Counted from the stretch's first letter, positions 1 to 50,103 are shown. The stretch: DNA of 62,773 bases from Pseudobdellovibrionaceae bacterium (GCA_044359815.1 JBIKLL010000009.1:1-62773), one strand, 5' to 3'. A program made the numbers and translations. The notes: generated from the letters alone by a model not told the origin.

Positions 1-7
1 TTTTATA

Positions 8-113
8 AAATGACTCAACACCAGATATGCCCCGCACGCTCGCTGCATGTGTCTAAAAACAGTAAAAACAAATTACCTTTGCCTTTATGCAATACGAGAG
101 ATGAGCTTGCGGT
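8..113. repeat. Family A palindromic element, right half (cut by window start)
   Basis: 103/106 nt identical to 16437-16542; contains motif Q (aaatgactcaacaccagatatgcc...) and partial motif P' (caatacgagagatgagcttgcgg). Confidence 0.9.
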
Positions 114-221
114 TCGTCCGCAATTTCTTCAGGATGATTTAAATTTTTTTGGCAGATCATGGATTGGCTCTAGATTACTTGATTTTAGTCCTGTTTGTTT
201 ATGTGACACTCAATCCAAAAA

Positions 222-360
222 CTAAGGTTTCTTTTTTTAAGTATCTAATTTCCTTAAAAAGGTCCTCTGCGGAGCCTGGACGGCGGGGGCCTGCCCGAGC
301 AGAGAAGCACGAGCTGTGACCTTTTTAAGGAAATTAGATACTTAAAAAAAGAAACCTTAG
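222..360. repeat. Family C palindromic element, copy 1
   Basis: Perfect 43-bp inverted arms 222-264/318-360 around a 53-nt GC-rich core beginning ctctgcggagcctggacggcgggggc, shared with 16631-16699. Confidence 0.92.
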
Positions 361-520
361 CTCTTGTATTACATGTCCATCCTTAAAAAACTTTTCCTAA
401 AATGATAAAATCTAGAGCTAAGGCCAGGCTCTGTTTAACATAATTCAGCTGAAGAATTCAGGACCTGATTTTTTGGGACAAAGTTCCGTTAAGAAGATGT
501 ATCCACACAGAAAGTTGGTT

Positions 521-16294: not shown

Positions 16295-16542
16295 TCTCTC
16301 GTGTTGCGTAAATACAAAGATAATTTTTTTCACTATTTTTAGACACTCGCTAACGGCCGCGGGCTCATCTCTCGTATTGAGTCATTTAGATTAATCAGTC
16401 TTACGATAAATAAATTATCATAAAACTTATTAATCTAAATGACTCAACACCAGATATGCCCCGCACGCTCGCTGCATGTGTCTAAAAACAGTAAAAACAA
16501 ATTACCTTTGCATTTACGCAATACGAGAGAAGAGCTTGCGGT
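16295..16542. repeat. Family A palindromic element, copy 2
   Basis: Outer arms 16295-16346/16478-16530, motif P 16347-16387, inner stem 16377-16409/16415-16447, motif Q 16437-16477. Confidence 0.92.
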
Positions 16543-16565: not shown

Positions 16566-16764
16566 GATCTGACTCAATTTTTAGAAGCTAAAATTAGAAA
16601 TCTAAATATTCTATTTTGTTAAAATTGGGCCTCTGCGGAGCCTGGACGGCGGGGGCTTGGCCCGAGCAATGAGATTGGCGATTCGAAATCAAGAGCTGTG
16701 CCCGATTTTAATAAAATAGAATATTTAGATTTCTAATTTTAGTTTCTAAAAATTGAGTCAGATC
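16566..16764. repeat. Family C palindromic element, copy 2
   Basis: 65-bp arms 16566-16630/16700-16764 (62/65 complementary) around core 16631-16699. Confidence 0.92.
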
Positions 16765-24395: not shown

Positions 24396-24531
24396 TAACC
24401 GAAAAGAGACCGTACGACTTTTTCTGTCTACGGTGCGAAAAAAGCCAAACGATGATTAAAAAAGTTAATCGTTTGGTTTTTTTATTTTTCGCACCGTAGA
24501 CAGAAAAAGTCGTACGGTCTCTTTTCGGTTA
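24396..24531. repeat. Family B palindromic element, coreless short copy
   Basis: Perfect 47-bp arms 24396-24442/24485-24531 with aaaagagaccgta...tttttctgtctac; small inner stem 24445-24453/24468-24476. Confidence 0.92.
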
Positions 24532-30296: not shown

Positions 30297-30851
30297 ATCA
30301 AACGCAAATTGGCAAAATGATTTTTCGGTAAAATTCAATATTTAAAATATAGGTCCCTAAATTCCACTCCTTGTGAACACATTTGCGAGCGCGCATGGCA
30401 TATCTGGTGTTGAGGCATAATTTAAAAGCGCAATTTGTAACTGAATCTGATTTGCTTTTCTGAGTCCAGAATTTGTATTTTTAAATATGGTTATATTTTT
30501 TATACCTTGTGAATACTTGCTAACGGCCGCAAGCTCATCTCTCGTATTGAGTCATTTGGATTAAATAGGTTTATGATTAATTATCATAAACCTATTTAAT
30601 CCAAATGACTCAGCACCAGATATGCCATGCGCGCTCGCAAATGTATTCACAAGGTATAAAAAATATAACCATATTTAAAAATACAAATTCTGGACTCAGA
30701 AAATAACCCTTGATTGATTAATTGTTTTTAAGCTGATGACTCAATACGAGAGATGAGCTTGCGGCCGTTAGCAAGTGTTCACAAGGAGTGGAATTTAGGG
30801 ACCTAAATTTTGAATTTTACCGAAAAATTATTTTGTCAGTTTGCGTTTGAT
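30297..30851. repeat. Family A composite: outer element (Q'...P') containing an inner element of opposite orientation
   Basis: Outer arms 30297-30342/30806-30851 (4 mismatches) and perfect 30350-30380/30775-30805; Q' 30381-30418; P' 30736-30774. Confidence 0.92.
30456..30703. repeat. Family A inner element (P...Q)
   Basis: Perfect 61-bp arms 30456-30516/30643-30703; perfect 30-bp inner stem 30548-30577/30583-30612. Confidence 0.93.
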
Positions 30852-34510: not shown

Positions 34511-34639
34511 AACACTAAAATTTGTCTTAATATTGGACGCAGTCAAAGCTGTGGACAATTTTTTGTCTTCAAATAAAAGCAAATCACAAACAAGCCAGCA
34601 CGACCTATGCAATGACTTATCATCACAGGGGGAAAAGCT

Positions 34640-35188: not shown

Positions 35189-35216
35189 CTTTTCAAATCA
35201 ATCAGGTCTTGTTCTA

Positions 35217-35783
35217 ATGAATCAGATGGGATTGCTGCAAGAATTTGCCAAAAAAAATCAAAAAACTTATGAAGCTCTGAAACTGATTTTAATCGTTGGT
35301 GCTTTGGTTTATCTGTTTGAGTTGTCAAAGGACCTGTTTGACTACACTCAGGTGAACGGTTTTTTTGTGGGGCTATTGGTTTTTGGTATTTATTTGTTTG
35401 TGATGAATCCAATCCAGAAATTTGGGCTCAGTTATCAGGCCGAAACTGGGATTTTTGTGATTACGACAACAGTTTTTGTACTGTACTTTTTTATAACGGT
35501 TCTATATCCCCGAGTTTTGGCTGAAGAGGAAGCCAATGCGCCTTGCGGTGCCAACACTATGGAATTTCGATGTTATAATATGTCGAAAGGTGCCTGCAAA
35601 TCGGCCTGGGAATACTATGAAAGCGGCTGCAAGGCCGAGGCTGAAACAAATCGAGCAGCACCCACCAAACTGGTTGGCGGAGGAGTCAAGAAATGCGTGC
35701 ACAGAAATTTTGCTAAGCACATGGCCTTCAACCAGCGCCTTGATCAACCCGGTTGCAGATCCTTTGTTGAATCCCTCAGATAA
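35217..35783 (+). CDS. Membrane protein with Cys-rich C-terminal domain
   Basis: Three TM segments, six Cys in the C-terminal domain. Confidence 0.7.
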   Translation: MNQMGLLQEFAKKNQKTYEALKLILIVGALVYLFELSKDLFDYTQVNGFFVGLLVFGIYLFVMNPIQKFGLSYQAETGIFVITTTVFVLYFFITVLYPRVLAEEEANAPCGANTMEFRCYNMSKGACKSAWEYYESGCKAEAETNRAAPTKLVGGGVKKCVHRNFAKHMAFNQRLDQPGCRSFVESLR

Positions 35784-35791
35784 ATAAAAAA

Positions 35792-37261
35792 CTAATTTCT
35801 AAGATCCACAAATCTTTTGCGAATCAGTGAAGAGGCAAAATCAAAAATCAACACCACTGACAATATCAGAACCAAAATGGCAAAAACTGAAGGGAAGTCC
35901 CGCCACTCTAGACTTTGCACTAAATCTTGACCTATGCCACCGGCCCCAACCAGGCCCAGAAGCGATGCTGATCTGACATTGTATTCAAGCATAAACACAA
36001 AGGCTGAAATCATTAAGGGTCTTGTCATCGGTAATACCGAAAAATAAAGGGCCTGCCAGCGGCTAGCGCCAAATTGCCTGAGGGATGAAAAAGGTTTTTG
36101 CTCCATATCCTCGAAGCCTTCATAAATCCATTTACTGAGGTAACCAACGGTGTAAACAGAAAGCGCTGCAATCCCTGCCACTGTGCCCAGTCCCAATCCA
36201 GCAACAAAAAGCATCGCCCATACCAACGAGGGAATGCTTCTGAGCATGACCAACAGAAAACGGAAAGGAACAGATATAAATTTCGGAAAAAAACTGTACG
36301 CAGCTAAAAAACTGAGTGGCAAAGCGATCAGAAAACCAAAAAATGTACCCAGAAATGCCATTTGCAAAGTCAGTAAAAGTCTTTCAAGAAGAAACCACCA
36401 TGACACCTGTTGAAGGCTTGCTGGTGAATGAATAAATAGTTTCTGAAAAAAACTCAGAACCTCGTTGCCTGCGTTTTCAGAATTAAAGCCCTCCAAAGAC
36501 AGAAAGTTTATGCATAACACTGCAAAAATAAATACTCCCACAAAAAGCGCAGTTTCCCACGGGCCACTGTGTTTCAAAATTGAGAGGGGTTTTTGTTTTT
36601 GCTCAGTAAGGCCTTGTTGACCCAGAAAAACCCTTCCGTCATGGATGCTCCAGGTTTCATTAAAGTATTTATTTACGACGGCAAGATTGTGGGTTGATAG
36701 CAGCAAACAGAATCCATATTTTTTTTGGATTTTGCAAATGTAGTCCATAATTTCAGTGGTCGTGGAGTGGTCCAAACTGCTAAAGGGCTCATCCGCTAAA
36801 AGCACTTCTGGCTTAGCCATCAGGGCTCGAGCAATCGCAACCCTTTGCTTTTGACCGCCTGACAAGGTTGAAACAGGTTGATCAATAACAGAGTTCAGAC
36901 CAAAATCTTCAGCCAACGATTTAGCCTCTTGCAAAATTTGTGGTGAAAAGTGAAGACTGTGGGCGGGTATTCTGCCCAGTGCGCCCATCAAGATATTTTC
37001 TAAACAAGTTTTTTCAATAACCAAATGCAGTTCCTGATGAATGAAGGCTACTTTTGATGTTCTGAGCAGTTCTTGGGAATCTGGCAGATCTAAAAGGCCA
37101 CCGAAAATTTTTAACAGTGTTGATTTGCCACCACCGGAGGGGCCTACTAAAGCAATGGCCAAACCTGCGGTCAGTTTGAGCGCTGGGCAACTCAAAGAAA
37201 AATGTGAGCTTTTTCCGTAATTAAAAACAAATCCTTCTGTCTGAAGAAGGATCCTGCTCAT
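35792..37261 (-). CDS. Fused phosphonate/phosphite-type ABC ATPase and permease (PhnC-PhnE)
   Basis: GPSGGGKST, LSGGQKQRVAIAR, LADEP, then RSIPSLVWA, EYNVRSASLLGLVGAGGIG. Confidence 0.88.
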   Translation of the reverse strand: MSRILLQTEGFVFNYGKSSHFSLSCPALKLTAGLAIALVGPSGGGKSTLLKIFGGLLDLPDSQELLRTSKVAFIHQELHLVIEKTCLENILMGALGRIPAHSLHFSPQILQEAKSLAEDFGLNSVIDQPVSTLSGGQKQRVAIARALMAKPEVLLADEPFSSLDHSTTTEIMDYICKIQKKYGFCLLLSTHNLAVVNKYFNETWSIHDGRVFLGQQGLTEQKQKPLSILKHSGPWETALFVGVFIFAVLCINFLSLEGFNSENAGNEVLSFFQKLFIHSPASLQQVSWWFLLERLLLTLQMAFLGTFFGFLIALPLSFLAAYSFFPKFISVPFRFLLVMLRSIPSLVWAMLFVAGLGLGTVAGIAALSVYTVGYLSKWIYEGFEDMEQKPFSSLRQFGASRWQALYFSVLPMTRPLMISAFVFMLEYNVRSASLLGLVGAGGIGQDLVQSLEWRDFPSVFAILVLILSVVLIFDFASSLIRKRFVDLRN

Positions 37262-38145
37262 TTGACAAAGGTTTTCGCATCAAGCCCGGTGTCTTTGAGC
37301 GCCTGTCGTGTCTTGACAATATGGTTTTCAGTATCTGCAGGAGCTATCAATTCGGCAGCACCATAAACACTGGACAGCATCTGACCCTGTTGTTGAGACA
37401 GTTTCATCAACGCAGCTTGGATTTTGGTTTTTAATTGTTTGGACAAATCAGATCTGACAGCAATCAAATGTGTCGGCACTCCAGAGTTTCTTTTTAAGAT
37501 TCTAATTTGATTGCGCTGTTCTTTGGTGCCATACAAATCGGCCTTTACGCCTTCAATCACATAGTCACTAAAGGCAGCGGCGTCGGCTTGACCGCTGACC
37601 ACTGCTTGTAAGGCTTTATCGTAACCGCCTGCATACAAAATCTGAGAAAAATATTTATCTGCCTGTTGATAGTCGGAAACTTGTTTTTCTTGGACCAATA
37701 ATGCCAATGGCATCAGGTATCCAGAGGTGCTTGTTTGAGAAGTGAAGGCCATCTTTTTGCCTTTTAGTTCTGTGACTTCTTTGATGGGACTGTCTTTGCG
37801 AACAACTAACAGTGAATCGTAATCTGTGCGGCCATTTCTTTTTTCAACTGCAATGATTTCAACAGGGGCTTCTTTCTTTGCCAATATATAAGGAAGTGAA
37901 TCCATGTAGGCGACTTGGACTTTGTTTGAAATCAAAGCCTGCACACTGGCTCCGTAGGACATCGGAATCATAACTTCTACTTTGACTCCGATTTCTTTAG
38001 ACAGAAAATCTGCGACCTGTTTTGCTTGGGTTTGCAGTTCTTCTGGAGCTTTTTGCTTCTGAAAACTAAACATCAGAGTTTCTGGGTCTTTGGCAAAACA
38101 CAAGCTACCAAAAAGTGCTATCATCATTGCTGCAAGGTAACGCAT
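37258..38145 (-). CDS. phnD: Phosphate/phosphite/phosphonate ABC substrate-binding protein
   Basis: Signal peptide, STSGYLMP, VVSGQADAA; adjacent to the phnC-phnE fusion. Confidence 0.85.
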   Translation of the reverse strand: MRYLAAMMIALFGSLCFAKDPETLMFSFQKQKAPEELQTQAKQVADFLSKEIGVKVEVMIPMSYGASVQALISNKVQVAYMDSLPYILAKKEAPVEIIAVEKRNGRTDYDSLLVVRKDSPIKEVTELKGKKMAFTSQTSTSGYLMPLALLVQEKQVSDYQQADKYFSQILYAGGYDKALQAVVSGQADAAAFSDYVIEGVKADLYGTKEQRNQIRILKRNSGVPTHLIAVRSDLSKQLKTKIQAALMKLSQQQGQMLSSVYGAAELIAPADTENHIVKTRQALKDTGLDAKTFVK

Positions 38146-38267
38146 AATTAAATCCGCCTGTAATGAGTTTCCCGAAGCTATAACTAATGTACCGGCAATT
38201 GGTAAAGGAAGATCCTGCAAAGCCCAGCAAATGAAAATCTAATGAAAACCCTTGGTTCTGATTTTGG

Positions 38268-38807
38268 TTATTTATAGTCTTTCTTGCGCATAATTGATTC
38301 TGTATAAGCAAGCATTAAAGAGCTCAGTAAGAACACAACGTGGATGATTACCTGCCACATAATCTGATCACCGGCTTTTTCTTTAATATTAATGAAAGAT
38401 TTCAGTAAATGAATTCCCGAGATACCAACCAAAGCGGTTGCAAGTTTGACCTTCAGAGTTCCAGCATCAATTTTTTCTAACCAGTCTGGTTTGTCAGGGT
38501 GGTTGGTAAGATCAATCCGACTGACAAAGGTTGCATAGCCCCCAATGATCACCATGATTAGTAAATTCGCCACCATGGTGATGTCCACCAAAGTCAGAAC
38601 CCCCAACATCAACATTTCCTCAGTGATCGTCTGAACTGTTGCTACCAAATGAATCAGTTCCACCAGAAATTTGTAGGCATACAATACCCCAGCAACAATT
38701 AGTCCTGCGTAAAGAGGGGCTTGAAACCAACGGCTGGCAAAAATAATTCCCTCAAAAAAACCTTCAATTTTCTTGTGGGTGCTCGTATTTGATTTGGTAT
38801 TTGTCAT
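38268..38807 (-). CDS. YqhA/UPF0114 family membrane protein
   Basis: IFASRWFQAPLY, ANLLIMVIIGGY, LKVKL, SGIHLLKSF. Confidence 0.9.
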   Translation of the reverse strand: MTNTKSNTSTHKKIEGFFEGIIFASRWFQAPLYAGLIVAGVLYAYKFLVELIHLVATVQTITEEMLMLGVLTLVDITMVANLLIMVIIGGYATFVSRIDLTNHPDKPDWLEKIDAGTLKVKLATALVGISGIHLLKSFINIKEKAGDQIMWQVIIHVVFLLSSLMLAYTESIMRKKDYK

Positions 38808-39054
38808 GGGGCAGTTTTCTCCGATTGGTTGGTTGCTGGCTTGGGCTTACTTCTGCCACAGCCTATCCAGCCAAGCAAGCTTTTGGATTGTGTCACAACC
38901 GTTGATGCATTTTGTTTTTCTGAGATTTAGGAGGGACAAAAAGGGGTCTTTTCAGAGGGGAAAACTGTAATCCTTATGCCCGCGACTGTGTCAGCGCCAA
39001 TTAAAATTCAGTGGCAGCAGTCATTGATTTTGCACAGCTGTACAGTGGTGATTT

Positions 39055-40392
39055 ATGACACTGATTGGATTATGGCTTTTTATTTATATTCAGTATAAGC
39101 ACTTGCCCCTGGCCGCGGCGGCAGAGGTTGCTGTGCCTGTTGGTCAATCGCAGAGTCAATCCCAGCAGATCACTGAAATCAACAATGCAGACCTGGAATC
39201 CATTGGTCCTTTGTTGTTTCAAGGCAGAACTAATTATTGTTATTCGTATGTGGCGGCGGATTTGATCAGTCAAGAATTAGGCGAACGGGTTTCGCCGGCG
39301 CAATTGGCGCTGACCTATCAGACATTTAATTATCAAAAAAATAAGCACGATACCACTGGCGAAATTGCTCTAAAGGGCAATGGGGGATCAGCAACCAGAG
39401 TCATTGAAATGATTCGCAATAGGGGATTTTGCAAGGACAGTGATCAGTATTCAAGATATTTTCAAACATGGATCGAAAAGCCCAAAAAATTTGCCTTACC
39501 AGATCCCCAGATTCCACCTGTGCAATTCAGAGCCAGAGTTTTTGAAAATGTCAGAGTGTTAGTTTCAAATAAAAATTATTTACGGCAGGTTGATCATCTG
39601 GGAACAGATTGTCGGATTTTAAACTTTGCAAAAAGCAACAACAAGTCTGCAGCTATTTATGAAACCTATTATCAATGTGCAAGCTTGCTTAAAAGCCATG
39701 ATGACCAAAGCCGGTCTGCGGGTACCCAACATCAAGGGGTAAAATTAATCGGGCCTGTGCCTTGGTTTGAAGGTGATTCGCAAGCGGGTGGCAGAGTGTG
39801 GCAATCAGGTCATTACATTGTGATGCCGGAGTCGCAGGATTTGCAGAGTCTTTTGCAGCAGGATTTACCAGAGCCTTTTAAGGGTTACACTTTGATTCAA
39901 ATAAACAGCAGCGGGGCTGGTCGACAAATTGCCAGCGTCACAGAGTCAGATGACGAAGCTGTTGGCATTTACACTCCATTTAAGGCAGTGGGATCGCGCA
40001 AAAATAGAGGTTCAGATTATTTTCCGGATAATGGCCAGGTTGGCAAATACAGTATGTTAGTGAATTCTTGTCAGCAAAAACTGTGGTTACCAGAAACAGT
40101 AAAAATAAATTTAAAATGTGATTTTGCAAAGCAAGGATCCCTGCAGACACACAACTCAGATTCTATTTTAGGAAATTTAGACAGATTGTTGGAATCAGGA
40201 AAAATCGTGGGATTTAGCCACAAAGCTACCGAGATGAATCACATCATCACAGTGATTGGCCGCAAATGTTCAGGGTCAAAACCCAGTGACTGTGTGTATA
40301 CGGTCAGAAATTCAGCCCAACCCAACGAAAAATTTAAAACCGCAGAATTCATTCTGCAAAAAGGCCTTTGCCTGTCCTGGCTGCAAAAGTGA
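39055..40392 (+). CDS. Putative papain-fold cysteine peptidase
   Basis: QGRTNYCYSY, HIITVIGR and VRNS match Gln/Cys/His/Asn of C1-like peptidases. Confidence 0.65.
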   Translation: MTLIGLWLFIYIQYKHLPLAAAAEVAVPVGQSQSQSQQITEINNADLESIGPLLFQGRTNYCYSYVAADLISQELGERVSPAQLALTYQTFNYQKNKHDTTGEIALKGNGGSATRVIEMIRNRGFCKDSDQYSRYFQTWIEKPKKFALPDPQIPPVQFRARVFENVRVLVSNKNYLRQVDHLGTDCRILNFAKSNNKSAAIYETYYQCASLLKSHDDQSRSAGTQHQGVKLIGPVPWFEGDSQAGGRVWQSGHYIVMPESQDLQSLLQQDLPEPFKGYTLIQINSSGAGRQIASVTESDDEAVGIYTPFKAVGSRKNRGSDYFPDNGQVGKYSMLVNSCQQKLWLPETVKINLKCDFAKQGSLQTHNSDSILGNLDRLLESGKIVGFSHKATEMNHIITVIGRKCSGSKPSDCVYTVRNSAQPNEKFKTAEFILQKGLCLSWLQK

Positions 40393-40696
40393 CCGTATTA
40401 CTTTTTCTGTCTACAGCGCAGAATTGAAATCGAAAACCTAGAAAACCAAAATGCCACTTATAAATCTAATTTTACTTTGCAATCTTAAAAACTCAAACAG
40501 CGGGCGCAAAGCTGCGCGCATTTAAGTGCTGAAAGCATGTAAGTCATCCGCGCAGCTTCGCGTCCGAACTCGTTTTTAAAACTGCAAAGTAAAATTAGAT
40601 TTATAAGTGGCAACTTGGTTTTTTAATCTTTAAGACTTTTTATTCTGCGCTGTAGACAGAAAAAGTAATACGGTCACTTTTGACGGTCACTTTTGC
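40384..40696. repeat. Family B palindromic element, full copy
   Basis: Perfect 41-bp terminal IR 40384-40424/40642-40682, perfect 30-bp middle arms 40452-40481/40583-40612, core 40480-40584, 13-nt terminal duplication 40683-40695. Confidence 0.93.
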
Positions 40697-41403
40697 GACA
40701 GAAATTCTTTTTCGATTTTTAATAAGCCCAAGGCAATGGATTGGCTTAAGGCCGCTATTTTTGCAGAATTGGCGCTGTTTGGTTTTTCACAAACAGGTTC
40801 GATTTCAACCACGGATTTTTGAAACTCATCTAATGCGGGATGTAGCTCTGTTGCAAAAGCCGATTGTGATCTTTCCAGAAAATATCCCAGACTCCAGGCG
40901 GTTTCACCAAATTTGGACAGCAAATAACAACGTTCATAGTCTGAACTGGTTGATTCAGTCACTGCAGACAGTTTTTCAACAATCGAATGCAGGATTGATA
41001 ATTTTAAATCTTTATACAGCAGCCAGCCCAAGACTCCCTTTAAACTGGCGATTTTAAATCCGCAAGAGGCAACGTAAATTTCGTCATTGTGAAAGATGCC
41101 CTCGTTGATCGGACTATCCAAATAAATTGGAGTCGTCATCGAAAATTGTTTTCCCTCAGAATTAAAATAATAAACGACCTGACTGAATGCAAAAATCACT
41201 TGGATGTTAAGCCCTGGTACAGCCTGATCCCAATTGATAACGGAACTTTGTTTAAAAACATTTATTTCTTCAGTGTGTTTTGCGATCACCTGGTGTTCTT
41301 GTGAGCTGTCTTTGGATCTTTTTTGCAATTCGCAAACAATCGAATCCTGGCCCAATGAAAATTCACCCATCAGCAGAATGATCAAAACTAAAATACTTTT
41401 CAT
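40687..41403 (-). CDS. Secreted hypothetical protein
   Basis: Signal peptide MKSILVLIILL, G-rich SD; no recognised motif. Confidence 0.7.
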   Translation of the reverse strand: MKSILVLIILLMGEFSLGQDSIVCELQKRSKDSSQEHQVIAKHTEEINVFKQSSVINWDQAVPGLNIQVIFAFSQVVYYFNSEGKQFSMTTPIYLDSPINEGIFHNDEIYVASCGFKIASLKGVLGWLLYKDLKLSILHSIVEKLSAVTESTSSDYERCYLLSKFGETAWSLGYFLERSQSAFATELHPALDEFQKSVVEIEPVCEKPNSANSAKIAALSQSIALGLLKIEKEFLSQK

Positions 41404-41419
41404 TTTTATGTCCCCTTGA

Positions 41420-41773
41420 TTAAGCTTTTTTAACAAATTCTGATTTTAAATTAATCGAGCCAATCCCATCAATTTTACAAGCGATATCATGTCCATCGCC
41501 ACCGTCGGCCAATCTGATGTTTTTAACTTTAGTGCCGACCTTCACCACAGATGATGAGCCTTTGATTTTAAGTTCTTTGACGACGGTGACAGAATCCCCA
41601 GTGGCCAAAACATTTCCGAAGGCATCTTTGATAACACTGGAATCAATGCCAGCGGAGGCATCTGATTGGGATGCGGGTGAATCTGTCCATTCGTTAAAGC
41701 ATTCGGGGCAGGTCCATAAATCGCGGTCTTGGTAAATATTGGGGCTTTGGCATTTGGGGCATTTGCTAGGCAT
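41420..41773 (-). CDS. yjdM: PhnA/YjdM zinc-ribbon protein
   Basis: CPKC...[34 protein letters not shown]. Confidence 0.93.
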
Positions 41774-41859
41774 CAGGAAAGCCTACTCAAAAATGGCCTG
41801 AATAAAAAGAACTGAGTTTCAATTACGCTCTGTAGTCAGGATAGCTGACACAGTCTTGT

Positions 41860-42528
41860 TTAAGGGGCAACCTCCAGCCAGATTTCATTGCGCCTTAAAA
41901 ACCATAACTGAAAGGGTGAATTAAACCTGGCTAAAATAGGTTCTCCGACGGTTTTAATATTTTGTTTTAATAGCTCGGCAGTGAACGCAGATAGTTTTTC
42001 GTTGTAACGACTTTCAGACCATGAACCAGAATAGCTATAAACCGCGACCTTGCGTGCAGGAATTGTTCGCAATTGAACCCTGGAATCGTTGGGCGATGGC
42101 AGGGTTTCCATGGTATAGCCCTCTGGCATAGTAAACTGAACCAGTTGTCCTTTGGCATCTTTGCTTTGGCTCACGGGTGCTGTCATCGCGATTTTTTCTG
42201 AACCCGCAGTTTGTGATACAGGGGCAGTCATCGCAATTTTAGTTTTTGATTTGTTATTGCCAAAAATATAATCGGCTAAAATCCTGAAAGCTTTATTGCC
42301 GGCGTCTTCAAAATTTGCATCAACCAAGGTTTCGGCAACTATGGTTGGGCCATAAAAACGAATTTCAATATTTTCATATTTTTTTTCAACGGTGTATTTG
42401 GGTTCTTCGACAGCCATGGCGCCTCCTGAAAACATTGTTAGCAACACAAGCACGACCCATTTGCTGTGCGACCGTGTCCAGTCCCAACACGGATAGCTGT
42501 TTGTCCTCCAAAAATCTGGCTTAAGCAA
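41860..42528 (-). CDS. SOUL heme-binding protein; start uncertain
   Basis: AFRILADYIFGNN, KIAMTAPV twice, FLRRNEI. Confidence 0.92.
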   Translation of the reverse strand: MLKPDFWRTNSYPCWDWTRSHSKWVVLVLLTMFSGGAMAVEEPKYTVEKKYENIEIRFYGPTIVAETLVDANFEDAGNKAFRILADYIFGNNKSKTKIAMTAPVSQTAGSEKIAMTAPVSQSKDAKGQLVQFTMPEGYTMETLPSPNDSRVQLRTIPARKVAVYSYSGSWSESRYNEKLSAFTAELLKQNIKTVGEPILARFNSPFQLWFLRRNEIWLEVAP

Positions 42529-42949
42529 AGTGCAACTCCATTTTCAGTTCAGTTTTTACAGAATTCAGAATAAATCCAGATTTGAAGGCTTTGTCGGCAA
42601 TTGTTTTGACTCTGTCGGGACTTTCACAGCCTTCAATCACTACATGCAGCAGGCATATTTTCATGACGGGTTTTTTTGACTCGTCCAAATCGGTGATAAG
42701 TTCTGTTTTGACCCCTAAATGTTTAAAGCTGATTTTTGATTTTTCTGCATAGACCTTAAAGGTCGCAATAAAACAACTGGTCAGCGCCTGAGCAAACAGG
42801 TCCTCTGGTGACAGAGCCCCGCCGGGGCCTTCAAATTCTGTCGGTACAGCACAGTTTGTGGTGAAATTTTGGCTTTCGATCTGCCAGCCAGAATTAATTC
42901 CTTGATGGGATTCGGCCTTTGCAAAAAATGAAATGGGATATTTAATCAT
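42521..42949 (-). CDS. OsmC/Ohr family protein
   Basis: PTEFEGPG, SPEDLF, SCFIAT, ILNSVK. Confidence 0.85.
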   Translation of the reverse strand: MIKYPISFFAKAESHQGINSGWQIESQNFTTNCAVPTEFEGPGGALSPEDLFAQALTSCFIATFKVYAEKSKISFKHLGVKTELITDLDESKKPVMKICLLHVVIEGCESPDRVKTIADKAFKSGFILNSVKTELKMELHFA

Positions 42950-43343
42950 GTTTGATCTCACAGTAGGGGCTATTGGAACAATCAGCTTTCCGTCTGGGCA
43001 AATAGGGTCTGATCACAACAAAAAATTTGTAACCGGCTTCCAATATAGAGCGCACAGATTTTCTGTCGGACAATCGATGCAAAAACTGATATCTGGGAAG
43101 CTCTTTCCAAATCGCACGAAAGGCATCCACGCCCTGGCGAAGGACTCCATCTGTGTCCCGCACATGCATCACCTTGTGGGCCAGAAAGGGGTCGATCCCA
43201 TGGTCCTCGGCCTTGAAATCAGCCTGAGTGATGTCCACAAACTCAAATTTATTTGCGCCAGTCTGTTTGCGGTAATGATTGATTTCGGTCGAGCAGGCGA
43301 TGCAAAGTCCATCGTAATAAATTGCTCCTGTTTGCAGATTCAT
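42942..43343 (-). CDS. DCC1-like thiol-disulfide oxidoreductase (DUF393)
   Basis: YYDGLCIAC, GVDAFRAIW. Confidence 0.88.
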   Translation of the reverse strand: MNLQTGAIYYDGLCIACSTEINHYRKQTGANKFEFVDITQADFKAEDHGIDPFLAHKVMHVRDTDGVLRQGVDAFRAIWKELPRYQFLHRLSDRKSVRSILEAGYKFFVVIRPYLPRRKADCSNSPYCEIKHD

Positions 43344-43355
43344 ATTGCACCTCCG

Positions 43356-43383
43356 ATATAGTTCATAGTAGTATGAACTATAT
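43356..43383. promoter_or_regulatory. Palindromic operator between divergent genes
   Basis: atatagttcata-gtag-tatgaactatat, a perfect 12-bp inverted repeat. Confidence 0.75.
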
Positions 43384-43858
43384 GAAAAAGCAAGTTTTAA
43401 ATCAGGTAAATGCTCTGGCGGACGGTGTGGGACAGTTTATACGCTACTGGGGCTTTCGTAAAATCCACGGCCAGATCTGGGCTCTGGTTTATTTATCCAG
43501 CGAGCCACTGTCTGGTATTGAGATGGGTCAAACCCTTGGTGTTTCAAAAGCACTGATAAGTCCTGCGCTAAAAGAGCTTGAGGCCGAGGGGCTTATCAAG
43601 CAGATTCCAAGCGAAAATGCCAAAACCAAAAGATACATCGCAGAAGAAGACGTCATGGCAATCATCCATGGGGTTTTAAAGCGAAGGGAAATTCCGATGC
43701 TGCTGAAGATCCAAAAAAGCTATGATGTCTTGGCCCAAAAAGCCGTGCCGGGGGATGGAATAGATCTGAACCGGATGCAAAGTGTGGGGTTGATGATCCA
43801 GATGGCGCAACTGGGTTTGGTTGGTTTATTGGATTCTGAAAACCTGTGGGGTGATTGA
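43373..43858 (+). CDS. GbsR/MarR-like wHTH transcriptional regulator (start 43373 or 43382)
   Basis: WGFRKIHGQIWALVYLS, LGVSKALISPALKEL. Confidence 0.85.
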   Translation: MNYMKKQVLNQVNALADGVGQFIRYWGFRKIHGQIWALVYLSSEPLSGIEMGQTLGVSKALISPALKELEAEGLIKQIPSENAKTKRYIAEEDVMAIIHGVLKRREIPMLLKIQKSYDVLAQKAVPGDGIDLNRMQSVGLMIQMAQLGLVGLLDSENLWGD

Positions 43859-43912
43859 GTCATGCAAACAAGCAAAAAAACAAAGTTTAAAAAAATAAAA
43901 GGCGAATTTAAA

Positions 43913-44176
43913 ATGGACAATACTGCGTATCAAGTAGGCGACAAAGTTCAGTGGAAATGGCTGGGGCGACCAATTGTTGGAACTGTTGAACAGATTTTTA
44001 CGGACACAGTTATTCAAGAAATCAAAGGCAAACAGATCAAACGAAAAGGCTCGCAGGACAATCCGGCTTATCTGGTAAAATCCGCAGCCGGAAATCTGGC
44101 CCTTAAATTACAATCTGAGCTTGTGCCATCAAGCACAAATCACCCTGCTTCCGTGGTTCCGAAAATGTTCAGCTGA
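43913..44176 (+). CDS. HVA1/DUF2945-like small protein
   Basis: GDKVQWKW, KRKGSQDNPAYLVKS. Confidence 0.8.
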   Translation: MDNTAYQVGDKVQWKWLGRPIVGTVEQIFTDTVIQEIKGKQIKRKGSQDNPAYLVKSAAGNLALKLQSELVPSSTNHPASVVPKMFS

Positions 44177-44257
44177 CAGCACAGGTCCAGATCTTTGGGC
44201 GAATCCTATTCTTTTTAAATATAATTTAATAATGTTATAAAAAAAGAGGAGTTTTTT

Positions 44258-44656
44258 ATGAGGATATTAGTGTTTTTGGTTGCTTTTGCTTTTTGTGGAA
44301 CTGTGTTTGCTCAAATCCCATCTGATTGTCAAAAATGTCTGTCTGAGTGCCCCCATGATTCAAAAGATTTAAAACCCTGTGATCGCGGTTGCAAAAATCT
44401 ATGTTCAGATGAACAAGTAGCTGAATGGAACAATGTTCAGGTTGAAAAAAATAAAACCAAGAAATGTTACGAATGCATGTCTGAGTGTCCACATAAAACC
44501 AAAGATCTAAAGTCATGCGATAAAGGTTGTGCTGATGACTGTGATCGTGATTCGTTGGTCGGCGCGTTTGCAAAGCTAAATGGTGATTTTAAAAAATGCT
44601 CAGACTCCAGCGGGAAAAAAACAAAAGACAAAATCAGTAAGGGTGTTAAGCAGTAA
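44258..44656 (+). CDS. Small secreted Cys-rich protein with an internal duplication
   Basis: AGGAG SD, signal peptide, two CxxCxSECPHxxKDLKxCDxGCxxxC units. Confidence 0.75.
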   Translation: MRILVFLVAFAFCGTVFAQIPSDCQKCLSECPHDSKDLKPCDRGCKNLCSDEQVAEWNNVQVEKNKTKKCYECMSECPHKTKDLKSCDKGCADDCDRDSLVGAFAKLNGDFKKCSDSSGKKTKDKISKGVKQ

Positions 44657-44674
44657 CAAACTGTCTGGTTACAT

Positions 44675-47191
44675 TTAAAAGTATTGTGTTTCATCAATGA
44701 TCCATCGCATGTTTCGATCTTCGTCTTTTCCTAATTTAAGCAGTACATCTTGAATTATTGGATCTTGCGAGTTGCTGGCTCTGAGTGCTCTGGTGGCAAT
44801 ACTGCTAATATTTAAGTCCGCATCATATACTCGTGAAAGCAAAGCTTTCAGTATTCTTGGGTCTTGCGATTTTCTATTTCCAAGTGTTTTGGTTGCTGAA
44901 AAGCGAATGTATTGATGGGGATCCTTTGTCGAAATAAGCAGAGCTTCCAAAACTCTTGGATCTCGCGAATTTGAAATTGCCATGGATCTGAGTGCTGCTA
45001 ATCTTACTTCGTTATCACTATCTATCATCGCATCAAGCAGAGCTTCGATTATTCTAGAATCTTGTGATTTCCATTCTCCAAGAAATATTATTGCGTTCCT
45101 GCGAACAACACGTTCACTTTTATCTTTGAATGCAACAAGCATTGCCTCCAAAACCCTTGGATCCTGCGATTTGCTATTTCCAAGTATCCAGCATGCTTGC
45201 ACTCGGTTGGTTCCATCTCTATCCTTCATCGCCACCAGCAAAGCGTCCATAACTCTTGGATGTTCGGTTCCAAATGCGCCAAGTCCTACGATGGCCATAA
45301 AGCGATCTTGTGGTAAATTGCCTTTCGCAATAGCCAGCAGGGCTTCCAATACTCTTGTGTCTTGAAATTTGATTTCTCCGATTGCTCTTAATGCCGTCGC
45401 GCGAACAATGCCGTCGCTATCTTTAGTTGCATCGAGCATTGCCTCAAACACTCTTGGGTCCTGTGATTTGCTATTCCTAAGTTCATTGGTAGCCGTCTCT
45501 CGAACACGATCACTATAATCCTTCATCGCAGCTAGAAACACTTCCATAACACTGTCGTTTAAAATGATAAACTCACTCAGCAGACGCAATGCTCTTACTT
45601 GGGTTTGCTGGGTTTTTGAATAATCGTAACTACGGCCAGAAGTCTTTATCAGATCAACAAATCTTGTCCTGCTTGAAAAATTTGATTTTCTCTTTTGGGC
45701 ACTTGGATTTCCGCCAAGAGCTAAATTTTTTAAAAGATCGATATCTTCAGGATGCTCATTAAGCCGTTGCTTAATAATCCCGTCGATTCTGGGATCTCGG
45801 CCATATCCAAAACCCTCGATATTGCCATTGATTTCGTATATAAATTCAATTTCTTGATGACTGAGGGGCTTTTGGTTTTTGTGCTTTTTCTCAATGGCTG
45901 TCAGCATTTTCATATCGGCATCTTTTTTTAAATAGATTTTTCCCTCATTTCCAAAATCCTTTAATTTATCTTTTAAAATATTTGTTTTCGCAATTTCACC
46001 ATCAAGCTCTTGTGACCGTTCAACACCCCGAATTTCTCCGATTTTTGTATTTTCCATTCGGATCGCGATGCGTGGATGTGCGGGTTCCCCGGTAACATCG
46101 TTGCTATAATAAACATAAAAATCACCACGCATCAGCTGCGATTCCGCTGTTGCTGTCCCTGCCGTGCACCAACCTGTGCCCCTATTGGCCAGGGAATCCT
46201 CTAGCGGTTTGGGATCAGATCCCATCGGATATTTTACCCAATGGCCAGTGGTGATGGATTTATCAAAATGCTGACTAGGAAGCTGTTTGATCGCGTGGGC
46301 ATACCAATGCCCAAACTGCGCTTTGTTTTTAATGATATTGATCAATTGAGGACCTTCAGTTTGTTTTAACGTATTTTTATCCAAGGCTTCTGCAGCCCAA
46401 TCAACAACATTGGCTAAGGCCTCAATTTGCTTTAACGTATCTTTATCCAAGGCTTTTACAACCCAATCAACAACATTGGCTAAGGCCTCACGATTTAAAT
46501 CCGGAAAGGCCGCCACTGTGTCATTTGTACGCTTAGCAAAGCTGCCTTTTTCTTTATCGAATTTTCCTAATTTAACAACTCCACTGATGATCCAAACTTT
46601 CGTCCACACAGGGTACATACTTGAATCGGACGACAGCAAATAATCAATCCAGGGGGTTAATGAATCTATTTGTTCCTTTTGATGCATCCTTAATAACTGA
46701 TCGATAGCCTCTTTGGTGACAGTGATATCACCGTGTCCGCGTTCACGAGCGATTTGCTTTTGCAGTTCAATGTATTTTTCTGGTAATTCCTGGATGATAT
46801 AGGGGGCGATCATGGACTTTGTGATCTGCTCGCGCTTTTGATCATTCTTGCTCACTCGTGGATAAATGTAATTTAAATAGTCGATGTATTTTTGGAAAGC
46901 CGTCAACGGATCAGCTTCCCTTTTGCCAGAGGCATTTGCTGCAACTTCGACAACTTTTTTTTCGCTGATCAGCTTTGGGCTGGTTTCAAATAAAAACCTT
47001 GCCTGGTCCCTGTTGGTGCCCTCGGCAAATGCCCCATGGCATTTACTGAGTTGGGTTTGCGCGACCACTGGTGATCCCAGACCTAATAAAATCACAACCT
47101 GTGACATTGTGACCAAAATTGTTCGACACCTGTTATTTAACAACAAATTAAACCTCAGTAAAATGAATCTAAACCATGCTAAAACGCTCAA
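44675..47191 (-). CDS. Large hypothetical protein: conserved 'GTGWCTAG' domain plus C-terminal HEAT repeats
   Basis: GTGWCTAG...FYVYYS...PRIAIRM...EIRG; about eight SQDPRVLEAL...D.D..VR repeats. Confidence 0.75.
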   Translation of the reverse strand: MSVLAWFRFILLRFNLLLNNRCRTILVTMSQVVILLGLGSPVVAQTQLSKCHGAFAEGTNRDQARFLFETSPKLISEKKVVEVAANASGKREADPLTAFQKYIDYLNYIYPRVSKNDQKREQITKSMIAPYIIQELPEKYIELQKQIARERGHGDITVTKEAIDQLLRMHQKEQIDSLTPWIDYLLSSDSSMYPVWTKVWIISGVVKLGKFDKEKGSFAKRTNDTVAAFPDLNREALANVVDWVVKALDKDTLKQIEALANVVDWAAEALDKNTLKQTEGPQLINIIKNKAQFGHWYAHAIKQLPSQHFDKSITTGHWVKYPMGSDPKPLEDSLANRGTGWCTAGTATAESQLMRGDFYVYYSNDVTGEPAHPRIAIRMENTKIGEIRGVERSQELDGEIAKTNILKDKLKDFGNEGKIYLKKDADMKMLTAIEKKHKNQKPLSHQEIEFIYEINGNIEGFGYGRDPRIDGIIKQRLNEHPEDIDLLKNLALGGNPSAQKRKSNFSSRTRFVDLIKTSGRSYDYSKTQQTQVRALRLLSEFIILNDSVMEVFLAAMKDYSDRVRETATNELRNSKSQDPRVFEAMLDATKDSDGIVRATALRAIGEIKFQDTRVLEALLAIAKGNLPQDRFMAIVGLGAFGTEHPRVMDALLVAMKDRDGTNRVQACWILGNSKSQDPRVLEAMLVAFKDKSERVVRRNAIIFLGEWKSQDSRIIEALLDAMIDSDNEVRLAALRSMAISNSRDPRVLEALLISTKDPHQYIRFSATKTLGNRKSQDPRILKALLSRVYDADLNISSIATRALRASNSQDPIIQDVLLKLGKDEDRNMRWIIDETQYF

Positions 47192-47416
47192 TGATTTTTA
47201 GTTGCAACAACCTTACTACCAAAGCTTGCTGCCCCATCATTTTCACCTCGCTTTGAAAGATCTGCTGTAATTGGGATTCAGCTGATTAAGTTTTTGTCAC
47301 TGGCTGGCGGGTTTTGTTACTGACAGTGGGTGGATTCAATCGGTGCAGGTCATAGGGGTTTTAAGGGTCTTATATCCACCTCAACTCAGCATCCTGATTG
47401 CACCTGTACTGTCCTT

Positions 47417-49741
47417 ATGAAAAACTTAATATTCACTTTAGCGTCCCTTATATTTGCGTTTTCAGTTACAACTTTAGCCTCTGGCCAAGATCCTATGGCA
47501 GACCGGGCACAGCTGGTCGGTGAAAATTCACTGTATATCACCGAAGCCCAAGCCCAATCCATGCTGCAAAAACTGCGGACCCAATACCAGGTTTCAATCT
47601 CTGCAGATAAAGGCGCAGAAGCGTTTTTAACCAATGACCTGATTTATTTTTTGTATGATTTCTTTACTCAGGCAAAGCCTAAAAACCCTTTGCAAATAGT
47701 GGTTTCAAGATTAGCAACCGTTAAACTGGTGAGTTTTAACCAAGCGACATCGCAGATTGTTTTGTCAGCCAGCGCAGGGGATAATCTGTTTGCCACACGC
47801 CTTAAAAAAGAAGCTCGGGCCAAGGGCATTGATTTGATGTCAGAAACTGTTGAAATGCAGCTTTCGTATTCAAACGAATTGTTAAAACAGCTTTTTACGG
47901 TTTTGGATTTTAATACCAAAACAAATTTTATTGAAAGCTATTTTAAGGTTAATATCAAACCCATCGATAATACTTTTGTTGAATTTCGTGACCGAGAGCT
48001 TAATCAATTGTTTTCAGCAACAGTTGATATCCCAACCCACAGTCGCAAAGAAATGAAAATCAAACACATCAACCGCATGCTGTATGGTTTAGCAAAATTC
48101 AAAGGCGGCGGGAATGTGCTGGCAGAATACAACAAGGTCTTAGAGCAAATCAGAGTTTACGAAGCAAATTTTGAAATCAGCACTAATTTTGGAGAAGACA
48201 CCTACGCCCACGAGCTCTGCCATGCCTTATCAGCCGGCATGAATACCAAAATCAGAGATCAGTTTTATGCAATATCATGGGTGTTGGATGCAAATAACAA
48301 ATGGGAATCAAAGCCTGGTGACAGTCAGTTTGTCACCGAATATTCAACCGAATCAGCAGAAGAAGATTTTGCAGAATCTTGCGGGGCCTACATTGTCTCT
48401 GGCAAAGCTTTAAATTTTAAAGCACCTGCAAAGTACAAATTCTTAAAAGACAAGGTTTTCAGAGGCATCGAATTCAGCGATGTTTTTAATTCTTTGATTT
48501 CAGCTAACATTAAAGCCATTTTGCCCGAGGACAAGCTGCCACCCAGTATGTCCCTGCCAATTGATAAAACCTTTAAGGTTTATATTTACGAAACCAAGAC
48601 CAACGAGCTTGCCGTAGAAGTTGAAGCTTTTGGGCTGACTGACGATGTCAGTGGAATCAAGGACGTCACTGTGTTTATTGGCAAAAAATTAGATAGTCGT
48701 TTTTTAATCACGCTTAAAAAATCCGCTGGATCAAAAAGATATTTTGGTCGAAAGGTAATCGCTTTTTCTGAGGCGCCGGACGATTTTACTATCAATTCGG
48801 CTTTCTTGGAAGACGTTGCAACCAACAAGGCCTATATTCAGGTTGGTAAATTGTTTGTCCCAGCAAAGCACATTCAGGACAAAATCAACCAACATAAATC
48901 TAAGTCTGCAAGACCCGACATTAAGTTTGATTTTACCAAGGTTAAAATAAATTCAGTCCCCACTGACCAGGGCACAGTTTCGGCAGTAGAGGTTCCCATC
49001 AAACATACAGAATTGTTTGAAACAATAGTTTTTACCTTTGTAAGTCTGAAGGACAAATCAAATATTTCATTTCAAACCAGCCACAGAAAATTGTTATCAT
49101 CTGAAGTCAGTAAAAATATTTTATCCAAAGACGGGCAGAATATTAAAATCAACACTATTATACCTGCTGAAGTCCCGACTGGGGATTATGAGCTCAGTTA
49201 CGTAGGATATTATCATATGATAAAATTATCTGATGATGTGTTGCCGCCAGTGTGGACGTATCAGTTTAATAATTCTCAAATTTTTAAGTTCCAACCTGAG
49301 CCTAATTTGGTGATTCGCCACGTGGGCACTAAGGTCAAAAAAACCAATCCAGAAATCAATGCTAACAACCTAAAAATAAAATCCAAGGAAAACAATGATG
49401 GTACCGTTACAGTCAGAATAAAAGTTCCCGTCAGCAATGTCACAATGGGTGAAATCAAAGGATCAATCAAAGTCAAAGGGCCAGATGGCAGAACATTTAA
49501 CGGCACTGCCAGTTCAATCAATACTGATGGCACAATTGATTTTGATGTTCAGCTTCCACCACATTTTACGGGTGGTACATACAGTGTCGAATCCATCGAG
49601 GTCCAAGAGTTTCCAGTCATCCAGCAAGAAGATGTCGAGACACCCCGTGAAGGTGATTACCCCTTTGGCAAGACCGAGCAAATCCTGAAAGAGCGCTCGA
49701 TCAACCGCGAAATCAAAATCGAAGGACCCAAGCTGTACTAA
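47417..49741 (+). CDS. Large secreted protein with putative zinc metallopeptidase domain
   Basis: Signal peptide, YAHELCH (HExxH), FVTEYS...EDFAES, beta-rich C-terminal domains. Confidence 0.75.
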   Translation: MKNLIFTLASLIFAFSVTTLASGQDPMADRAQLVGENSLYITEAQAQSMLQKLRTQYQVSISADKGAEAFLTNDLIYFLYDFFTQAKPKNPLQIVVSRLATVKLVSFNQATSQIVLSASAGDNLFATRLKKEARAKGIDLMSETVEMQLSYSNELLKQLFTVLDFNTKTNFIESYFKVNIKPIDNTFVEFRDRELNQLFSATVDIPTHSRKEMKIKHINRMLYGLAKFKGGGNVLAEYNKVLEQIRVYEANFEISTNFGEDTYAHELCHALSAGMNTKIRDQFYAISWVLDANNKWESKPGDSQFVTEYSTESAEEDFAESCGAYIVSGKALNFKAPAKYKFLKDKVFRGIEFSDVFNSLISANIKAILPEDKLPPSMSLPIDKTFKVYIYETKTNELAVEVEAFGLTDDVSGIKDVTVFIGKKLDSRFLITLKKSAGSKRYFGRKVIAFSEAPDDFTINSAFLEDVATNKAYIQVGKLFVPAKHIQDKINQHKSKSARPDIKFDFTKVKINSVPTDQGTVSAVEVPIKHTELFETIVFTFVSLKDKSNISFQTSHRKLLSSEVSKNILSKDGQNIKINTIIPAEVPTGDYELSYVGYYHMIKLSDDVLPPVWTYQFNNSQIFKFQPEPNLVIRHVGTKVKKTNPEINANNLKIKSKENNDGTVTVRIKVPVSNVTMGEIKGSIKVKGPDGRTFNGTASSINTDGTIDFDVQLPPHFTGGTYSVESIEVQEFPVIQQEDVETPREGDYPFGKTEQILKERSINREIKIEGPKLY

Positions 49742-49745
49742 CCCT

Positions 49746-50103
49746 CAAAAAGAGACCGCAAAAAGAGACCGTACAGCTTTTTCTGTCTACAGAGCGCAAT
49801 AATAAAAAACTGAAAAGCCATAATTCTGTTTATAAAAATAATCTATATTCACAGTTTTAAAAACGAGTTCGGACGTTAAGCTGCGCGGATGATTTACATT
49901 CTTTGATTACATAAATGCGTGCAGCTTTACGCCCGCTGTTTGAGTTTTTAAGATTGTGAATATAGATTATTTTTATAAACGGAATTATGGCTTTTCGGGG
50001 TTGTTGTTTTATTATTGCGCTCTGTAGACAGAAAAAGCTGCACGGTCTCTTTTTGCGCTGTAGACAGAAAAAGCTGCACGGTCTCTTTTTCGGTCTATTT
50101 TTG
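49746..50103. repeat. Family B palindromic element, full copy with core inverted relative to the 40.4 kb copy
   Basis: Terminal IR ~49759-49807/50007-50055, middle arms 49812-49853/49955-49996, core 49852-49956 (95/105 identical to reverse complement of 40480-40584), terminal tandem duplications. Confidence 0.93.

Follow-up and report, generated by a model that had tools for sequence, protein, structure and literature searches.

Hairpin loci of the window and their copies in the genome

Analysis of a 62,773-nucleotide (nt) stretch from a Pseudobdellovibrionaceae bacterium (GCA_044359815.1, JBIKLL010000009.1:1-62773), referred to here as the window, revealed long DNA hairpins at six loci (164-421, 16295-16764, 24396-24531, 30369-30786, 40384-40682, and 49757-50090). 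The window is contig C20 of a 2.95-Mb assembly in 125 contigs. The inverted-repeat listing contained 16 pairs at the six loci, with arms of 25 to 65 nt that are 80 to 100% complementary, which bears out the long hairpins reported in a first-pass annotation of the same sequence. No pair was detected in any of 10 near-dinucleotide-preserving shuffles; the BLAST-based detector used for this control drops alignments spanning the center and recovers only 4 of the 16 pairs of the window. The six loci lie beyond chance, and the hairpin observation is real. Five of them are positioned between the 3' ends of convergent open reading frames (ORFs), and the sixth, at the contig start, is located upstream of a CheA-like gene. 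On balance, we regard the six loci as probable copies of several families of nonautonomous mobile DNA hairpins of the repetitive extragenic palindromic (REP) or REP doublet (REPIN) kind.

Four motif families were distinguished in place of the three initially described, because the earlier family A consists of an A motif (the REP) and a separate D core nested between A pairs. The A motif is about 35 nt long and forms inverted pairs at 24396/24531, 40384/40682, and 49757/50057. Family B comprises two related GC-rich motifs, B1 and B2, in a unit of about 150 nt in which B1 pairs imperfectly with inverted B2 around an AT-rich apical hairpin. Twelve simple B units were aligned, and a B1+ B2+ B1- B2- build or a three-motif form was found at 37 of 89 B loci, contig-end loci included. 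In family C, a core of 53 nt (short type) or 69 nt (long type) is positioned between arms of 60 to 65 nt. The D core measures 79 nt, and each window copy lies between its own AT-rich arms of 53 to 54 nt, with the whole unit inside an A pair. Among the 17 D elements listed, 14 have A on both sides and 3 do not. The B, C, and D elements are palindromes of about 150 to 250 bp, in which an asymmetric, structured, GC-rich center stands on AT-rich arms of 40 to 70 nt. The coordinates are collected in Table 1.

A k-mer census of the genome revealed at least 246 palindrome centers with arms of at least 30 nt. These centers were assigned to B motifs (105), the C core (58), the D core (23, 10 of these with A), A only (9), and other sequences (51); the last class contains B apices and further B-like and D-like families among the 45 of its 51 centers listed. 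When up to 20% substitutions were allowed, the genome-wide motif counts were 53 for A, 129 for B1, 88 for B2, 46 for C, and 19 and 18 for the two D halves. The GC-rich motifs are conserved between copies, as the first-pass annotation had stated, and each recurs across the genome. A hand count of the table put about 21 of the 38 C copies between two 3' gene ends.

Complete elements of the same build are present in independent metagenome assemblies, and the elements are therefore not assembly artifacts. Near-identical DNA was found in lake-water metagenomes, where one search returned 24 DNA runs and listed no RNA run. Logan contigs of four lake-water runs, compared over positions 30200-50150, break at the elements. 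No empty site was readable in these contigs, each joint having a short side of 21 to 46 nt that possibly derives from other copies. In the assembly itself, 35 of the 89 B loci are located at contig ends, which indicates that the repeats help to fragment it. In practical terms, such repeats will be encountered when these predators are assembled or binned from lake metagenomes.

Table 1. Coordinates of the hairpin elements in the window and of the RAYT-like paralogs elsewhere in the genome
Feature	Position	Orientation	Details
Truncated B-type element at contig edge	10..125		B2 motif 10-46; B1-like piece 90-112
B1-like piece in 10..125	112-90	reverse	B1 query positions 23-45 match at 100%
C element	164..421		AT-rich arms 205-264/318-377; short-type core 265-317 (+), 53 nt, fold -13.6 kcal/mol; outer weak inverted repeat 164-188/397-421
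B-type locus	16295..16541		Outer inverted repeat 16295-16330/16495-16530 enclosing simple B unit
Simple B unit	16349-16475	B1+ B2-	B1 16349-16394; AT-rich apical hairpin 16366-16409/16415-16458; inverted B2
C element	16566..16764		Long-type core 16631-16699 (+), 69 nt; arms 16566-16630/16700-16764, 65 nt, 95% complementary
A-type REPIN	24396..24531		Inverted A (REP) motifs 24396-24442 and 24485-24531, 100% complementary; 42-nt copy-specific hairpin spacer with A and T runs; '+-' pair with 64-nt spacer in motif scan; DNA fold -66.8 kcal/mol; single REP a hairpin with bulge
Composite B element	30369..30786		B unit nested in apex of inverted B unit; inner unit fold -47.6 / -53.3 kcal/mol, z -12.5 / -13.8
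Composite B, left half			B2 30369-30418; arm 30456-30504; B1 30505-30555; apical hairpin 30556-30604
Composite B, right half			Inverted B2 30605-30654; arm 30655-30703; inverted B1 30736-30786
A-D composite	40384..40682		A motifs 40384-40429/40637-40682, 237-nt spacer; AT-rich arms 40439-40492/40572-40625; D core 40493-40571 (+), fold z -4.0 / -4.4
A-D composite	49746..50103		A motifs 49757-49807/50007-50057 and extra tandem A 50058-50090; arms 49812-49864/49944-49996; D core 49865-49943 (-), matching core 40493-40571 in reverse at 87%
RAYT-like paralogs, about 206 amino acids			C23:201-821; C48:48177-48797; C56:2969-3616; C47:11964-12584; C49:93331-93951; C100:633-1253; C125:2378-2998; C8:23373-24056

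Family A and the RAYT-like genes

A search of the genome with profile PF01797 gave nine matches, the best of which (C8:9768-10106; 34.8 bits against a cut-off of 23) lies in a 211-amino-acid (aa) ORF on contig C8. The same ORF matched the NCBIfam model NF047646 (REP_Tyr_transpos) with an E value of 3.2e-20 and 72.5 bits, pointing to a REP-associated tyrosine transposase (RAYT). In its translation, examined by eye, NHFHLL was taken as the HUH motif and YIYQNP as the catalytic-tyrosine motif (YxxxNP type). Inverted A motifs positioned 756 nt apart bracket this gene (RAYT-1, C8:9505-10140), and the downstream motif overlaps its stop codon. The inverted repeat around RAYT-1 has 48 hits in the genome; at the other 10 of the 11 Y1-like genes, no recurring flanking inverted repeat was found. 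RAYT-1 is without a close paralog in the genome. The first-pass annotation had seen no enzyme gene, which holds for the window but not for the genome.

Analysis of the 22 '+-' A pairs revealed 8 with spacers of 56 to 106 nt, 13 with spacers of 213 to 314 nt, and 1 that encloses the RAYT gene. The spacers of the eight short doublets vary and fold, with energies of -36 to -67 kcal/mol. The A motif contains GTAG and forms a stem of 9 bp that has one bulge and closes a 7-nt loop (-5.5 kcal/mol, z -0.84). No GTAG was recognized when the B1, C, and D motifs of the window were read. Because inverted A motifs bracket the C8 gene and no other Y1-like gene has a recurring flanking repeat, family A agrees with REPIN-RAYT systems in the main respects. 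As judged from these sequence features, it is a classical REPIN with its own RAYT (Y1 HUH) gene elsewhere in the genome.

Ten further RAYT-like genes were found, eight with 86 to 100% identity to the query copy (Table 1) and two distant ones at 35%. This second family has 426 homologs at an E value of 1e-5 or better and is named RayT by one source. Its homologs are common in Bdellovibrionales and Oligoflexia metagenome bins and occur in 21 of 41 genomes searched, this genome included, with up to 17 matches in one. The 600 nt around each Y1 gene contained no B, C, or D motif, and a search out to 4 kb from nine Y1 genes revealed a single C core, which has no arms and is near one of the genes. 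With no motif so close and no recurring inverted repeat around the paralogs, the idea that each of them lies beside its own repeat was rejected. A RAYT gene flanked by the conserved motifs, which the first-pass annotation had proposed to look for, was thus found for A on C8 and for none of the B, C, and D cores. The eight paralogs share only about 60 nt of upstream sequence. Several of them are next to long microsatellite-like arrays, before or after the gene, with a copy-specific unit (8 nt, 4 nt, or 7 nt).

Concerted change of the arms and turnover of the elements

The C arms were compared in 38 copies with arms of at least 45 nt, using the inner 45 nt of the arms and the first 36 nt of the cores. 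Within a copy, the identity of the two arms (complementarity) was 0.974; between copies, it was 0.626 for the arms, against a shuffled baseline of 0.473, and 0.875 for the cores. The left arm was closest to its own right arm in 37 of 38 copies. Outward from the core, the within-copy identity remained at 0.97 for 40 nt and faded by 70 nt. The between-copy identity was 0.67 against a null value of 0.43 in the first 10 nt beside the core, which are clearly conserved, weakly raised at positions 11 to 40 (0.60 to 0.66 against 0.55 to 0.60), and not above the null value beyond 50 nt. The earlier description of arms that are near perfect within a copy and different between copies therefore stands (97% versus 63%), but the arms are not unrelated: the inner nucleotides are conserved in C, and the outer AT-rich arms of B are fairly well conserved (judged by eye from the first 45 of 76 B arms) and resemble some C arms. 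In a blastn-short search at an E value of 1e-3, four of five window arms tested matched only themselves and their own partner, and the fifth had three extra short hits. The C arms are 83 to 88% AT, compared to about 60% in the flanks.

Changes in the arms were followed in 12 pairs of related C copies, with the four arms of each pair aligned. The copies differed while the two arms of each copy agreed in 130 columns, and 26 more columns were mirrored with gaps, against 45 columns with a single-arm difference and 1 with a consistent left-versus-right difference. The mirrored internal indels were 1, 2, and 7 nt long. Mismatches between arms numbered 159 in 2742 paired positions; 44 were G.T/T.G and 38 C.A/A.C. 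This lack of a strand preference argues against selection on one RNA strand. Selection for pairing would hardly produce mirrored indels through two independent events, and these indels suggest that templated DNA-level copying keeps the arms in step. The pattern points to arm-to-arm templated copying, not RNA-type compensation, in agreement with the homogenization suggested in the first-pass annotation. Long hairpin arms would then be kept matched by copying and not by selection on each base pair, which bears on the persistence of palindromes in bacterial chromosomes.

The D arms show a similar but weaker pattern. In 17 copies, the identity was 0.927 within and 0.716 between copies, with 0.868 for the cores; the left arm was closest to its own right arm in 16 of 17 copies, and 75 mirrored columns were counted against 70 single-arm columns.

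Comparison of individual copies indicates what is inherited. C101 and C104 are 89.8% alike over 176 nt, that is, over 56 to 65 nt on each side of the core, and the similarity ends near the palindrome ends. Core identity and arm identity are weakly correlated (rho 0.23), a value reached in 0 of 500 permutations. Since the nearest copies are alike over the whole palindrome and the core and arm identities correlate, C arms appear to travel with the core. The sequences thus support the whole palindrome, arms and core, as the inherited unit in C. There are 30 distinct sequences among 32 C cores, and the family is old by its divergence, the closest pair differing by 10%.

In the predicted fold of the C core, a closing stem bears two small hairpins, and a third hairpin lies beside it. 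Covarying pairs were observed (TA in 19 and CG in 13 cores; GC in 29 and AT in 3), and only 11 of 704 cells were non-Watson-Crick. Both C and D cores occur in both orientations, with counts relative to the local GC skew of 15 versus 16 for C and 7 versus 9 for D. The Rfam search that the first-pass annotation had proposed, run over the whole window with Rfam 15, gave no match at the gathering score. When E values up to 1 were admitted, the only hits in regions 16250-16800 and 40370-40700 were to microRNA precursors of plants and animals and to other entries, at 15 to 45 bits, compared to gathering scores of 40 to 195. A canonical intrinsic terminator (12-bp stem with seven G-C pairs, T run) is located at 30265-30292, between a DUF4360 gene and the B element. 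At this locus at least, the B element follows the terminator of the gene and does not itself act as that terminator. Consensus terminator and promoter scans gave totals near the shuffle expectation, and their loop limit hides these elements.

The C core was absent from 40 related genomes searched. A species-wide genome collection yielded 17 single hits for the C-core pattern, which were rejected as belonging to unrelated genomes (judged by record title). In metagenome contigs, a 22-nt C-core pattern revealed 28 loci, of which 11 are true C elements of the same build, with flanks that match this genome at 83 to 97%; the other 17, GC-rich DNA (GC 0.55 to 0.77) without arms, were discarded. At three orthologous sites (L041/C43, L058/C92, and L050/C14), both genomes carry a C element but with very different arms, and one of these pairs also differs in core type. 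At a fourth site, the relative carries two tandem C elements (L063) and this genome a B element. The elements turn over, since sister taxa carry different elements at the same sites. This turnover and the A-flanked RAYT gene support the nonautonomous mobile system of the REPIN/RAYT type proposed at the outset.

Where both genomes carry the same element, the conservation of its arms equals or exceeds that of the flanks. The left arms of L044 and C114 are identical at 59 of 60 positions (own count), where the flanks are 90% alike, and about 3 of 50 positions differ in one orthologous right arm (reading of the alignment). Judged from these alignments, the arms do not hypermutate. In the C copy at C85:28594, the left arm is mismatched to the right arm and resembles, by eye, a typical C arm of another copy, whereas the arms of its ortholog L047 match. 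The C85 copy is probably a chimera from recombination between two neighboring C cores. Tandem C cores were observed at L063 and at C105:28881/29064.

Three sites filled in the relative are 'empty' in this genome (C27, C116, and C73). At the C27 site, the left arm is complete and is joined, at a 5-nt direct repeat, to the 20 nt that form the outer end of the right arm; this allele is clearly a deletion scar. The C116 and C73 alleles keep 15 to 19 nt of one arm end with a 7- to 12-nt direct repeat at the joint, a difference that is not polarized in direction. Given the scar at C27, a scar is also the simplest reading for these two, and the 'empty' sites so read are not evidence that arms were copied from flanks. 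The comparison of orthologous loci suggested in the first-pass annotation thus yielded one clear deletion scar and no clean pre-insertion site. The possibility that the arms are copied coding ends was rejected: two of the 'empty' sites are in noncoding DNA, and the overlaps with ORF ends, of up to 22 nt, are not polarized. In the region of L039:1560-2340 and C73:20534, the relative has 780 nt more inside one gene (ORF of 570 aa, compared to 137 aa here), which may reflect an internal deletion here or an extra domain in the relative.

Explanations and known systems

Under the preferred explanation, that of REP/REPIN-like mobile hairpins, the elements would settle between convergent genes, with the apex of another element as a frequent site, and slippage deletion would often remove them. 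The core would be held by selection, most likely since a single-strand-DNA enzyme must recognize it, and the arms would only need to pair. One arm would be re-copied repeatedly from the other, which would keep the arms matched; the copying route might be a hairpin template switch in replication, gene conversion between the arms, or the repair of a single-strand intermediate that has folded. The sequences show the architecture, the copy numbers, the link of A to its RAYT, the concerted change of the arms, the turnover, and one clear deletion scar, whereas we infer the Y1 enzymes that would move B, C, and D and the route of arm copying.

Several observations weigh against this explanation. The C8 RAYT, at 72.5 bits, scores below the curated NCBIfam cut-off of 80 bits. 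A REP is expected to be a short palindrome preceded by GTAG, but in the 24396 copy GTAG is positioned inside the predicted stem, in its 5' half, and not 5' of the stem; the single A hairpin also folds no better than shuffled sequences (z about -1). For B, C, and D, no gene bracketed by the motifs was found. The cores show no orientation bias, though replication-coupled Y1 transposition would predict one; inversion between the arms could erase such a bias, so that this result is uninformative. The D arms show single-arm and mirrored differences equally often, and the arm data may fit copying in place or copying during a move alike. A true pre-insertion empty site, which would fix the boundaries and target sites of the elements, was not found.

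A more far-reaching version of the mobile-hairpin explanation, which we consider rather unlikely, is that B, C, and D form a class of mobile DNA set by shape and not by end sequences. The structured GC-rich cap would be read by a Y1 enzyme, for which the expanded RAYT-like paralogs are possible candidates, the end of the stem would set the limits, and the stem would be re-templated at each move, so that only half of each arm pair would be truly inherited. If true, this would explain the conserved caps, the matched arms that drift freely, the mirrored indels, and the stacking in apices.

Half-element or fold-back transposition, in which one arm and the core are transferred and the second arm is copied from the first (or from the flank) at each insertion, would let copies be born perfect. 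The mirrored substitutions and indels are consistent with it, as are the very high complementarity within copies despite deep divergence between them, the element-less alleles that keep 15 to 19 nt equal to the outer end of one arm at two sites, and the matching arms of L047 opposite the non-matching left arm of its ortholog here. This mechanism is nonetheless unlikely, because the C27 allele, joined at a short direct repeat, is clearly the scar of a deletion, with the other two sites most simply read likewise, and because in-place template switching gives the same counts without new transposition chemistry. The AT content of the arms, far above that of the flanks, indicates that the arms are not copied flank. 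Together with the C27 scar and the nearest copies, which share the whole palindrome, it speaks against the local creation of arms, put forward in the first-pass annotation, insofar as flanking DNA would be the source.

Quite unlikely, too, is a mobile GC-rich core that alone inserts into the single-stranded apex of existing hairpins (terminators or older palindromic elements), with the arms as its target. Nesting in apices would be explained, as in B within B (30369-30786), D between A pairs, and C within palindromes that enclose it. It also fits that the arms of three copies sharing the same 54-nt core are only 67 to 69% alike and that C2:43 and C52:6761 have near-identical arms around a short-type and a long-type core. 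Against this reading, core-less long AT-rich palindromes are rare: only 30 of 246 centers have loops shorter than 30 nt, and by eye most of these are B apical hairpins, two others being a C-like core-less palindrome and a deletion scar. The nearest C copies, moreover, share arms and core together, core and arm identities correlate, and the 10 nt beside the core are family specific. The only clear core-less case, at C58:44884-44978, is an AT-rich palindrome with C-like 46-nt arms and a 3-nt loop and represents a deletion product or a bare carrier.

The location between convergent genes at five of six window loci and about half of the C copies, and the orthologous left arm that is more conserved than its flanks, would suit structural or regulatory DNA sites kept by the host (protein-binding cruciforms or two-way terminators) that are no longer mobile; presence/absence and different elements at the same site between close relatives, the lack of such elements in the 40 related genomes searched, the frequent deletion scars, and the cognate transposase of family A make this very unlikely. 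The least probable explanation is that of structured RNAs (small RNAs or 3'-end elements) with a long stem and a conserved multi-helix tip under RNA-level selection: it would account for the covarying stems of the C core, the very stable folding of both the D core and the B unit, the A and T runs that flank the cores as in two-way terminators, and the G.T pairs among the non-Watson-Crick core cells (5 of 11 on the plus strand versus 1 on the minus strand), but it is opposed by the absence of a wobble strand bias in the arms (44 versus 38), mirrored indels of up to 7 nt that independent compensation would hardly produce, cores in both orientations, generic microRNA-hairpin hits far below the Rfam gathering scores, a terminator ahead of the B element, and different elements at the same site in sister taxa, so that this alternative of the first-pass annotation is weakened.

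Comparison of the mobile-hairpin families with the REP/REPIN-RAYT systems ('REPtrons') of Escherichia coli, Pseudomonas fluorescens SBW25, and Stenotrophomonas, as far as the available descriptions go, revealed that family A resembles them in its inverted imperfect-hairpin doublets with a foldable, less conserved spacer, its single RAYT bracketed by the same repeats, its extragenic position, its tens of copies, and its compensatory changes. According to the available text of PMC3116915, conservation is lower in REPIN spacers than in REPs, and changes on one side of the hairpin are commonly compensated on the other. The movement of REPINs is still unsettled: in the accessible parts of PMC3116915 and PMC8266576, REPs are cleaved in vitro, putative excision products are reported, and dissemination is described as poorly understood. 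RAYTs are described as single-copy in the portion of PMC5581495 at hand, whereas this genome also has eight close and two distant paralogs of the second RAYT-like family. The bacterial interspersed mosaic elements (BIMEs) of E. coli are y-z1 / y-z2 mosaics in the excerpt available from PMC8266576. The A-D composite is likewise a mosaic of inverted REPs with a second conserved motif between them, but its inner D is a long palindrome with its own conserved core and is also found without A on both sides. Families B, C, and D reverse the REPIN layout, with a conserved asymmetric center and variable arms; these arms are 40 to 70 nt long and 83 to 88% AT, and no RAYT is flanked by them. Family A is thus a known kind with its enzyme found, and B, C, D, and related elements are a variant of the REPIN kind in which conserved and variable parts have changed places. 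One cell therefore offers a comparison of a textbook REPIN and its RAYT with at least three families of reverse layout and ten more RAYT-like genes.

BIME linkers carry integration host factor (IHF) sites. Correia elements of Neisseria and ERIC sequences are noncoding, intergenic elements of 100 to 250 bp with a long hairpin, many copies, conserved terminal inverted repeats, and target-site duplications. The elements described here resemble these palindromic miniature inverted-repeat transposable elements (MITEs) in size, hairpin, intergenic placement, and copy number. They differ from them, and from classical MITEs, in that the C termini are not conserved and the arms equal the shuffled null beyond 50 nt from the core; no target-site direct repeats were found at the palindrome ends in the junctions inspected. 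Unlike integron attC sites, the elements are dispersed singly between convergent genes and their ends are not conserved, and the genome has only two PF00589 genes. In quasipalindrome template-switch mutagenesis of E. coli, imperfect inverted repeats are made perfect during replication as one arm is re-copied from the other. This process would yield mirrored substitutions and indels like those in the C pairs; it is a mutational hotspot phenomenon of short quasipalindromes and is not known as a long-term keeper of families of 50-nt arms.

Two further observations were made. A 6-nt tandem repeat at C30:21611-21674 reverses polarity midway and is scored as a perfect palindrome. The GC content of the final 7 kb of the window (56001-62773) is 0.31 to 0.34, down from about 0.42, suggesting a gene block of foreign composition.

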